DNA from: a plasmid
Sequence record: NZ_CP102478.1
Strand: one strand, 5' to 3'
Length of the DNA: 64,000 bases
In this document: piece by piece, positions 18,001-21,000 of the stretch
How the letters are laid out: each line of letters begins with the position of its first letter
Numbering within the stretch: the first letter of the stretch is position 1
Made by a program: the position numbers

Positions 18001-21000
18001 CCGGGCAGTTCGGCCGTGAGTTCCAGATGGCCCGTGTCGACGCCGCGCACGCTCGGGCGCGCCAGCTGACTGGCGCGCCAAAGGGCCGGATGTATGGCTT
18101 CAGGATGGGCGAGGGCGGGGTGCATGGGGTCGGTTACGCAAAATACTGTATGTTTGTACAGTGTGCGCCGGGAGACCGGTAGAGATCAAGGGGTGAAAGT
18201 CCCCGACATTGCAAGAACTAGCGATTCACGATTTCCCCGAGTCATGCGTGGCCAGCCGCGAGGCGGGTTGCGAAGCGTTGACAGGGGCGCTGATAGGCCA
18301 GCCATTGAGCCACGAAATGGATACATTCCCGAGTGCTGACGTACTGCTGTATGCGGAAGGCAACATCGCGCGGCGCGCTATCGCGAGCGCTGCGCGGACT
18401 CGGCGTGGTCTGAGACCCTGGCATGTCAGTACGATCTCTACGCGGGAACCGGGAGATCTCCCATCTGGCCGCCGACGGAAATATGGTCGAGCGGTCCGCA
18501 TCGGGAAGGCGAGGAGCTGAAGCCGATGACGAACGGATGGGAGAAGTCGGACTCGCCCATAGTAGCGAAGAAGCTGGCGAACAAACCCGGGCAACCGGAT
18601 GCGGAGTCAGTGGAGCGAAGGGGTGGGGCCAAGGGGAACACGGAATGGTCGCGCACGCGCCGGACGCAGAGCCGGATAAGCGTGTCCCAGAGACTGGACC
18701 GTGTGCGTCAAGCCGCAAGGCAAAGGAAGAAGGAGAAGTTCACGGCGTTGTACCACTTGATCGACCTCGACCTTCTGGCGACGGCGTTCTTCTGGCTGAA
18801 GCGGAAGGCGGCAGCCGGGGTCGATGGCGTGACGTGGCACGACTATGAGCAAGATCTCGACCGAAATCTCGAAGACCTGCATGGCAGACTCCGCCGGCAG
18901 GCTTATCGGGCGCTGCCCAGTCGCAGACGGTACATACCGAAGGCGGATGGCAAACAGCGACCGCTGGGCATTGCTGCGCTGGAAGACAAGATCGTCCAGC
19001 GTGCACTGGTGGCAGTACTCAATGCTGTCTACGAGATGGACTTCTTGGGATTCTCATACGGTTTCCGGCCGCAACGCAGCCAGCACGATGCGCTGGATGC
19101 ACTTGCGACGGGAATCGCTCGCACGAGCGTGAGCTGGATTCTGGACGCCGACATCAGCAGGTTCTTTGATACGGTCGACCACGATTGGCTGATCCGTTTC
19201 GTGGAACATCGCATAGGCGACCAGCGTGTGATCCGACTGATCCGCAAATGGCTGAAGGCGGGAGCGATGGAAGACGGGGTGATCGAGCCCACAGACGAGG
19301 GGACGCCGCAAGGGTCTGTCATCTCGCCTCTGCTGGCGAACATCTACCTGCATTACGTCTTCGACCTCTGGGCAAACCAGTGGCGCAAGCGCCACGCCGA
19401 GGGGAACGTCGTAATCGTCCGATACGCCGACGACGTCGTGGTTGGTTTCGATAAACCACACGATGCGAAGCGGTTCAGGCGGGCCATGCAACAACGACTG
19501 GAGCAGTTTGGGCTGTCGGTACACCCGGAGAAAACCCGGCTGATCGAATTCGGGCGCTTTGCGGCCCGGAACCGGGCAAGCCGAGGGCTGGGCAAACCCG
19601 AGACGTTCAACTTCCTTGGATTCACCCACATCAGTGGCCGTGCGAAAGACGGTAGGTTCATGCTCATGCGTAAGACGCGGAGCGACCGTCTTCGAACGGC
19701 GCTGAAGGGAATCAAGGATGAGTTGCGGCACAGATGGCACCAGTCGATTCCCGAGCAAGGGGACTGGTTACGCCGCGTGGTTCAAGGGTACTTCAACTAC
19801 CATGCGGTGCCGACCAACTTCGCTGCGTTGCGAGCCTTCCGCGCGCGCGTGATCGACCTCTGGAGGCTGGCGCTTCGGCGCCGCAGCCAAAAGGACGACA
19901 CCACGTGGGCAAAGATGCACCGGCTCGCGAAGCAGTGGATACCCAAGGCTCGCATCCTTCACCCCTGGCCGGTCGTGCGGTTTGACGCCAACCACCCGAG
20001 GCAGGAGCCCGGTGCGCGAATCGCGCACGCCGGGATCTGTGCGGGGGGTGCCCAGTAATGGGCATTCCTACCGCGACATATGACAGAGATAACCGCCCCA
20101 CCAACCCCCGCGTTTACGCTGCGAGCTGGTGCTCGTAGTACGGCCGCTCGCGGTCGGCGAGGATCTCGCGCAGCTGCGCGCGCCGGCTTGGATCGGGCGC
20201 GAGCCAGGCGTCGACGTTCGAGGATTTAATGGGCACGATGCACCTGTCGTGGCCAGCTGCCGCCACTTCCGGTGGTGGGTCGTCGGTGATCGCCGCGAAC
20301 GACCACAAATCGTCGCCGCCAGGGATCTCGGTGCGGGTCCACAGGCAGGCGACCTGCATGTGCTGCGGGGGCGTCGGGTCGAAGCGAAGCACGACATTCT
20401 GGCCGTCGCGCTTCACGTTTTCGAAAAATGCGTCGACGAGCAAGAGGCCATGCGTGAAACCGAAGACCTTGCGCCAGGCGGTACTGAGCGAATCGGCCCT
20501 CGCGTTATAGCTTCCGTTCTTTTGCTTCTCGTCCGCTTCGGTCCAGCCCGGTATACGGCATCGATACCGCATCGGCACGACCATGCGCTTGCCGTCGACC
20601 TCGATCAGCACGGGTGCATACCAGCCGGGAAAGATTCGCGAATCACGCTCCTGCAGGTCCTGCCGGCGGAGATCGTTGAGCCCGCGCGTCGCCGCATCGA
20701 TCTTGTCCGTGGCGATTCGAACGTCCTCGCTCGCCTTCTTCGTGATCTTCACGGCGAGCTTCTTCTCGGCCGCGGCGAGCCGCGCTCGCTGCTCGAACAG
20801 TTCGGTCTCCAGTTTCCGTGTTCGCTGGCTTCGATACGCAGCGATCGCGGCCGAGATTTCGTCATCGACACCAGCGAATGCTGCGTCGACCGCTTTCGGG
20901 ATCTTGATGTCGGCGCCGGATGCGCGCGCGAAAAAGATACGCCGGAACGTCTCGATGTCCATGTCGGCGCCGTAACGTCGGACGTACTCTCGATAGTTCG

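Follow-up and report, generated by a model that had tools for sequence, protein, structure and literature searches.

On plasmid NZ_CP102478.1 a group II intron lies directly beside the LexA-binding operator (SOS box) of an imuA-imuB-dnaE2 mutagenesis cassette, where it separates the cassette from an upstream SRAP-family gene. Did an ordinary intron settle by accident in a short intergenic spacer, or is the operator what it was aiming for? We addressed the question in a 64,000-nt stretch of the plasmid, here called the window, to which all coordinates refer unless another sequence is named. Comparison with relatives gives a clear answer: we are highly confident, on sequence grounds, that this is a mobile group II intron, intact and encoding a protein without endonuclease, and that the clade to which it belongs naturally homes into the LexA operators of Beta- and Gammaproteobacteria. 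Over 50 distinct introns of the clade were found inserted at the same position of a CTGT-N8-ACAG box, in hosts that include Burkholderia, Trinickia, Ralstonia, Pandoraea, Klebsiella, Enterobacter, Escherichia coli and prophages. The occupied operators include those of E. coli umuDC and tisAB, plasmid umuDC-like operons, uvrD, imuA and a FAN1-like nuclease gene.

The intron and the operator it interrupts

Both ends of the intron come from an empty site. The intron-less Burkholderia cenocepacia plasmid pBCPS27 reads ...TACTGTATGTTTGTACAGT/ATATGACAGAG (a slash marks the insertion point here and below), which equals the window up to 18162 joined to 20078 and onwards; the intron is therefore 18163-20077 on the + strand, 1,915 nt from GUGCG to CGAC. 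An earlier note on this DNA, made from the sequence alone, had placed the 3' end at about 20077, 36 nt from the SRAP stop codon, and this guess proved exact; the exon junctions were obtained through the comparison with intron-less homologous plasmids that the note had proposed. Its 5' end, GTGCG at 18163 beside a box at 18146-18161, is there to be seen in the sequence. The note had also supposed that the SRAP gene, the box and imuA were packed into some 90 bp before the insertion. Packing was indeed tight, but the figure needs correction: in the empty site 73 bp separate the SRAP stop from the imuA start (spacer ...TACTGTATGTTTGTACAGTATATGACAGAG...).

The window reads ...AAAATACTGTATGTTTGTACAGT/GTGCGCCGGG... 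at 18140-18172. Its core box, CTGTATGTTTGTACAG (CTGT-N8-ACAG), occupies 18146-18161, and GTGCG begins one base later, at 18163. Whether the intron lies next to the operator or in it is a matter of definition. Insertion 1 nt away, as earlier described, is correct for the 16-bp core, but under the 20-bp definition TACTG(TA)5CAGTA the intron sits inside the box, between positions 19 and 20. Positions 1-19 (TACTGTATGTTTGTACAGT) are at 18144-18162, while position 20, an A, is now at 20078, where it opens the 3' exon (20078-20113), the 36 nt that separate the intron from the SRAP stop codon (20114); the 20-mer is uninterrupted in the empty site. The box is the sole AT-rich canonical CTGT-N8-ACAG match in the 64-kb window, for which the chance expectation is 0.32 matches. 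A second match at 24618-24633 (CTGTCGTAGACGACAG) is GC-rich, lies within a 1,460-aa open reading frame (ORF) and is probably due to chance.

SRAP-imuA-imuB-dnaE2 occurs without the intron on ~30 Burkholderia plasmids. Among the Burkholderia plasmids listed with the locus, the full intron was present in only one match (H1) and was truncated in another (H4). In the latter, B. aenigmatica plasmid NZ_CP091649.1, the match consists of imuA and only the first ~1,050 nt of the intron, which suggests a truncated copy at the same SRAP/imuA site. An IS110 element of B. vietnamiensis plasmids was considered as an insertion in the SRAP-imuA spacer and rejected, as it actually lies between imuB and imuA (locus L231, 505-1548), outside the operator.

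The identification as a group II intron and not a retron is borne out by both RNA and protein. Rfam model RF02005 (group-II-D1D4-6) matches a domain I-IV core at 18196-18418 on the + strand over its full model length (188.7 bits, E 2e-55), the only Rfam match in the window. An ORF at 18526-20058 on the + strand, within domain IV, encodes a 510-aa protein combining a reverse transcriptase (RT) with YADD motif and a maturase; it matches Pfam RVT_1 (E 2e-43) and the NCBIfam group II RT/maturase equivalog TIGR04416 (371 bits, cut-off 300). The protein had no Pfam match to an HNH or other endonuclease family, and its PDB alignment to the TeI4h protein ends at query residue 464 (chain residue 417), before the D/En region of TeI4h. 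Lack of a D/En (HNH) domain is a trait of classes A, C, D, E and F. The covariance-model search suggested in the earlier note thus recovered domains I-IV, and domains V and VI came from comparative folding. A consensus fold of 21 class members places domain V, with an AGC triad and a 2-nt bulge, at 20004-20038 (+), and domain VI at 20040-20075 (+), where the branch point is a bulged A (20070) that lies 7 nt from the 3' splice site; compensatory changes are found in 13 of the 28 pairs of the two domains. The intron ends in AC at 20077, in keeping with the AY expected of a group II 3' end.

The last ~18 codons of the protein run through domain V into the domain VI loop (20004-20058), so that this stretch is constrained at once by RNA structure and by its coding function. 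The overlap is conserved in relatives, whose protein matches likewise reach residue 510.

Insertion sites across the clade

A search with the intron protein, restricted to one genome per species, returned 70 loci. All close relatives (at least 80% protein identity) were located directly after CTGT-N8-ACAGT/, one of these sites being degenerate, in flanks that were otherwise unrelated. Their hosts were Burkholderia, Trinickia (five loci in one genome), Paraburkholderia, Pandoraea, Ralstonia, Herbaspirillum, Janthinobacterium and uncultured Burkholderiales. An unbiased metagenome scan with the 5' 17-mer of the class yielded 118 junctions with enough flank. The box was present at only four, and these were exactly the four with the 5' sequence of this sub-lineage; the remaining 114, from sister lineages, lacked it and had other, lineage-specific targets. 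On a neighbour-joining tree of 38 intron proteins, the SOS-box introns form one clade.

The clade includes an enterobacterial variant with a protein 71% identical to that of the window, falling in a protein cluster of 3,157 sequences whose source label is Klebsiella pneumoniae. Its representative copy is at TTTTACTGGTTATACATACAGT/, ~40 nt upstream of a plasmid umuD. The variant was found in 219 of 5,426 complete E. coli genomes, and every E. coli copy inspected (17 of 17) was at a LexA box. One occupies the chromosomal umuDC operator (ACTACTGTATATAAAAACAGT/ATAACTTCAGGCAGATTATTATG); with the intron removed in silico, this site is 100% contiguous in intron-less E. coli. Further E. coli sites are the tisAB/istR operator, several plasmid umuD-like genes, and humD of an IncY plasmid. 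The umuDC and tisAB boxes of E. coli are LexA operators known from experiment. Phage and prophage contigs gave 32 distinct junctions: 28 at canonical boxes, two at CTGT-N8-CCAGT, one with an ATGT left half, and one that was the second copy of a tandem.

A position matrix of 26 sites reads TACTGTATATATATACAGT/AT, which is the LexA consensus, with CTGT as left half in 25. Genes beside the insertion boxes were imuA, umuD, umuC, HumD, uvrD, a FAN1-like VRR-NUC nuclease gene and a radical-SAM gene, the last of an SOS-regulated kind; these are the neighbours expected of the SOS regulon. Judged by sequence, the sites have what marks a LexA operator, a CTGT-N8-ACAG palindrome a short way upstream of DNA-damage genes.

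These surveys bear directly on the idea that the insertion is fortuitous or merely tolerated, an ordinary group II intron without LexA-box specificity having landed in a short spacer in which the imuA operator happens to lie. Intergenic DNA and plasmids are, after all, common locations for bacterial group II introns, and nearly all the listed Burkholderia plasmids with this locus have no intron. We nonetheless consider an accident extremely improbable. The same box in the same register recurs in more than 50 distinct flanks, when by our own calculation the box pattern at a fixed register has a chance of ~7e-5 per site; it was absent from all 114 sister-lineage junctions; and two recognition loops of the intron, exon-binding sites 1 and 2 (EBS1 and EBS2, described below), are complementary to it. 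The idea could be revived by supposing that one ancestral insertion was spread by recombination, but the unrelated flanks and the covariation of EBS2 with its target argue against this.

A different objection would assign the palindrome to the element, either as its terminal repeat or as a co-mobilised flank, and not to the host operator. Megablast matches between copies do reach ~20-25 nt upstream of GTGCG. Empty sites, however, carry the full box without an intron, the box spacers vary between sites where the intron is constant, and group II introns start at GUGYG. We give next to no credence to a palindrome carried by the element, and return to the host operator as the target.

Recognition of the operator by the intron

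EBS1 (GCUGUA, 18346-18351, +) is the loop just 5' of GGAAGGCAAC. Throughout the class this loop is complementary to the last six exon bases, intron-binding site 1 (IBS1; in the window TACAGT at 18157-18162, UACAGU as RNA), with a mean of 5.5 of 6 Watson-Crick pairs versus 2.3 for shuffled partners (maximum of 1000 shuffles, 2.98). EBS2 (UGGAUA, 18318-18323, +), the six bases after TGAGCCRCGAAA, faces exon positions -12 to -7 (IBS2, TGTTTG at 18151-18156), where the longest Watson-Crick run averages 4.2 versus 2.9 when shuffled. Both IBS1 and IBS2 are part of the SOS box. A candidate EBS3, the U at 18411 (+), would pair with the first base of the 3' exon, an A; its alignment column is complementary to position +1 in 40 of 49 class members, compared with 33 for the next-best column and ~20 expected from base composition. 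By predicted pairing, the intron RNA is shown here to read 13 of the 20 operator bases, box positions 8-20: EBS2 takes the AT-rich spacer (positions 8-13), EBS1 takes the right half-site (positions 14-19), and the candidate EBS3 takes the A at position 20.

The loops change together with their targets. In the SOS-box clade EBS1 is ACUGUA (ACUGUU in enterobacteria), which pairs with the right half-site TACAGT or AACAGT, and in a compensatory case from Paraburkholderia (L017) a box ending ACAGG is accompanied by EBS1 CCUGUA. For EBS2, UGGAUA is a perfect match to TATCCA at a B. cenocepacia chromosomal prophage, UGUUUA matches the spacer TAAATA in B. anthina, and UGUAUA matches TATACA in Klebsiella. 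Even at the one SRAP/imuA locus, B. anthina (L001) combines spacer TAAATA with UGUUUA and the window combines TGTTTG with UGGAUA. An alternative register for EBS2, in which AUACA would pair with TGTAT of the left half-site, was rejected as it fits the window variant only, whereas -12 to -7 holds across variants. Since the loops covary with the target, with EBS1 and EBS2 pairing to adjacent exon stretches and the candidate EBS3 to +1, recognition is of the EBS2-EBS1-EBS3 kind typical of IIB introns and not of the class-C stem-loop kind. A Ralstonia sister branch with EBS1 UACUGG inserts one base further, after box position 20; its sites are four LexA boxes and two non-palindromic sites (L214 and L216), which end in CCGGTA and CCAGTA and match its EBS1.

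The earlier note had offered the operator palindrome, read as a stem-loop, as a class-C-like target. That the operator is the target stands, and more generally than was proposed, while the stem-loop mechanism gives way to pairing of EBS1 and EBS2 with the box and to insertion inside the palindrome. As a full alternative, such recognition would have the operator read as a DNA stem-loop, the way IIC introns read terminators or attC sites, with sequence pairing secondary. It would draw on the capacity of a palindrome to form a hairpin in single-stranded DNA, on a protein without endonuclease, as in class C, and on a left half-site that is conserved (25 of 26 sites) without an RNA partner. However, the right arm of the palindrome must be single-stranded for EBS1 and EBS2 to pair with it, the Ralstonia branch is also found at its two non-palindromic sites, and the window intron has a 6-nt EBS2 that covaries with the spacer, unlike IIC introns, which are not known to have an EBS2 and use a short IBS1. 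We think class-C-like recognition very unlikely, and continue with recognition by base pairing.

Several points weigh against this account of an intact intron at home in LexA operators, or narrow it. The Rfam model of domains V and VI, RF00029, had no match between 17900 and 20400 even at E up to 10. In domain V the G of the triad is opposite an A (window 20007/20035) and not the usual U; as 20 of the 21 aligned class members have this trait, it is probably no defect. Pairing between EBS2 and IBS2 in the window copy is mostly wobble (two Watson-Crick and four G-U pairs). The left half-site TACTGT (-19 to -14) is conserved at occupied sites and no intron RNA loop matches it; its conservation suggests that it is probably read by the intron protein. 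Several enterobacterial copies have the same 3' flank and different 5' flanks, and some "sites" may thus be products of recombination between resident introns, not of separate homing. LexA boxes, moreover, may be nearly the only places in GC-rich genomes where an AT-rich match to IBS2 and IBS1 together exists. Lastly, SOS-coupled expression and occlusion by LexA, taken up below, are put forward as hypotheses.

Some occupied sites have been rearranged. In four E. coli plasmids (L232, L236, L237 and L238), antisense copies stand by different umuD or humD genes and boxes, followed by an identical 3' flank, ATATTTAACAGCGTGACGATAATCC..., and then IS1. Plasmid backbones thus seem to have been reshuffled, whether by recombination of one resident intron with another or by rearrangement through IS1. 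The copy on L238 is decaying, with an altered 5' end and an internal stop in ltrA. One E. coli chromosome (L224, ~1440-1500) has ISKox3 in place of the left half of the tisAB box beside the intron. Two full-length introns in perfect head-to-tail tandem, sharing a single SOS box, were noted in Trinickia (L011, 2553-6382; 1,914 of 1,915 nt identical) and also at L250 and L276. A possible cause is that an occupied site retains IBS1 and IBS2 and that the first G of the resident intron wobble-pairs with the EBS3 U, so that the site remains a target.

Orientation, SOS control and related elements

All four genes flanking the intron are on the - strand. They are dnaE2 for an error-prone DNA polymerase (12854-16003; Pfam PHP, DNA_pol3_alpha, finger, HHH_6 and OB domains); imuB, Y-family polymerase-like (16010-17488; Pfam IMS, and annotated as Y-family DNA polymerase on homologous plasmids); imuA, the first cassette gene (17409-18125; NF033429 ImuA at 221 bits, cut-off 150), with its ATG 18 nt from the box; and, upstream of the box, the SRAP-family gene (20114-21025; Pfam SRAP), whose 303-aa product has a Met-Cys start and is also called at 303 aa in another assembly's copy of the plasmid site. 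These profile matches agree with the gene identities given in the earlier note, and the + strand intron is therefore antisense to all four genes, again as described there.

Because the SOS box is palindromic, either strand can receive the intron, and insertions in both orientations were found; beside the gene of one and the same umuD protein, one plasmid has the intron on the near side of the box and a second plasmid has it on the far side. Sense copies just downstream of the operator were seen at E. coli umuDC, Ralstonia imuA and a B. cenocepacia prophage gene; in the window the intron is antisense and occupies the far side. A bias toward the antisense orientation relative to the SOS gene, apparent in the first 16 loci, was gone after Ralstonia, E. 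coli and prophage sites were added (~13 antisense versus 9 sense).

The window copy has close kin. A single nucleotide separates it from the intron that another assembly (L195) has at this plasmid site, and likewise from a copy in a P2-like prophage on AM747720 (L198), chromosome 1 of B. cenocepacia J2315. The single difference is at 18346 (intron position 184), the first base of EBS1, where the window copy alone has G and the others A. This change makes a G-U pair at -1; targets that end in ACAGC, such as the one in Herbaspirillum (L012), would be favoured by it. The window and prophage copies share EBS2 UGGAUA, which fits the prophage box perfectly and fits the plasmid imuA box only by wobble, so that the plasmid copy is most likely a secondary homing event from a sense-oriented prophage donor. 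B. anthina has a different intron variant at the same SRAP/imuA site, with another box spacer and an EBS2 matching that spacer; at least two insertions have therefore taken place here. The presence of several near-identical copies, each at a site of its own, implies that the intron was recently mobile.

What has the insertion done to the cassette? One reading is that it rewired control: antisense insertion would separate imuA-imuB-dnaE2 from its promoter, or give it a new hybrid one, and alter SOS mutagenesis by the plasmid. Upstream of box position 19, intron sequence has replaced all the original DNA, and by eye the insertion point splits a possible -10 element (TAT/ACT, minus strand). The intron may also, as the earlier note supposed, lie where the -35 element of the imuA promoter should be. 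The minus strand of the intron 5' end (18163-18200, clade-specific GAGATCAAGG) reads TTGATC, 18 nt upstream of the new junction hexamer CACACT; together they make a weak candidate hybrid promoter, directed outward toward the retained operator and imuA. On the other hand, imuA, imuB and dnaE2 are full-length beside the intron, the core operator still adjoins imuA, and no sigma-70 consensus promoter was detected in the empty or the filled site; scanning for sigma-70 promoters and terminators across the empty site, 5' junction and SRAP region produced no usable match. Rewiring of the cassette is possible, then, though we lean toward thinking it unlikely.

A mechanism for the homing itself can be proposed. 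The protein being without endonuclease, cDNA synthesis would probably be primed from replication-fork DNA, as has been described for RmInt1 of Sinorhizobium meliloti. A sense copy just downstream of an operator would be transcribed only on SOS induction where operator and promoter overlap, as at E. coli umuDC. An antisense copy such as that of the window sits on the far side of the box, leaving the core operator by the gene and replacing the DNA upstream. Our hypothesis is that operator-bound LexA hinders access, in which case SOS induction would at once express donor copies and expose new targets. Taken further, the clade might be a parasite of the SOS regulon. Its donors would be transcribed only after DNA damage, LexA cleavage would unmask its targets, and it would spread in stress-driven bursts from box to box onto plasmids and prophages, changing how the error-prone polymerase operons imuABC and umuDC are expressed, both on plasmids of Burkholderia and on the thousands of plasmids of Klebsiella and E. 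coli. We offer this larger picture tentatively, as one with somewhat less than an even chance of being right.

Known homing targets of group II introns are single genes, insertion sequences, terminators and attC sites; with a clade that homes into the operator of a transcription factor, a new class would be added to these. Short and conserved, the LexA box is present many times per genome, on plasmids and in prophages as well, and so offers many landing sites and easy horizontal spread. As the intron occupies control regions of imuA-imuB-dnaE2 and umuDC-type operons, it bears on mutagenesis, and in clinical strains it may affect the mutagenesis that SOS induces. Because its specificity for a defined stretch of 13 nt is encoded in RNA, it is also a natural test case for how introns retarget and for whether a DNA-bound repressor blocks retrohoming. 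In the literature searched, which was incomplete, we found no published account of a target preference for LexA operators, and an earlier description is possible; work retrieved on group II introns together with LexA, SOS box, umuD, imuA or umuC was either unrelated or consisted of plasmid maps giving "umuC-umuD-ltrA" without comment.

How does the clade compare with known systems? As to the Zimmerly letter class, these hosts are absent from the paper of Toro (2013); in any comparison with RmInt1, of bacterial class D, the window intron is known by its Rfam RF02005 match and not by a lettered class. In Ll.LtrB, a IIA intron, RNA pairs near the insertion site and protein reads the distal 5' exon, and we propose the same split here for the half-site at -19 to -14. 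LtrA, however, has an endonuclease domain and a unique target, ltrB, and in the SOS-box clade the protein contacts are inferred only.

IIC and IIC-attC introns also use a dispersed, structured and repeated target, in terminators and integron attC sites, and their proteins also lack an endonuclease. IIC introns insert downstream of a hairpin, are not known to have an EBS2, and use an IBS1 of 3-4 nt, in contrast to the SOS-box clade, which inserts inside the palindrome with 6 + 6 + 1 nt of pairing. RmInt1 likewise has an RT and maturase without endonuclease, pairs EBS1, EBS2 and EBS3 with IBS1, IBS2 and IBS3, and homes site-specifically into a repeated sequence; its dependence on the replication fork would be expected here too. 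It homes into an insertion sequence, ISRm2011-2, whereas the SOS-box clade homes into a palindromic operator of a host transcription factor, in both orientations. Finally, integron integrases, SXT-type integrative and conjugative elements, and CTX and 186-type prophages are SOS-linked elements, in which mobility or expression is coupled to LexA cleavage, a coupling that we propose for sense copies of the intron. Those elements carry LexA-controlled genes of their own, whereas the SOS-box intron uses the operators of its host as its integration site.

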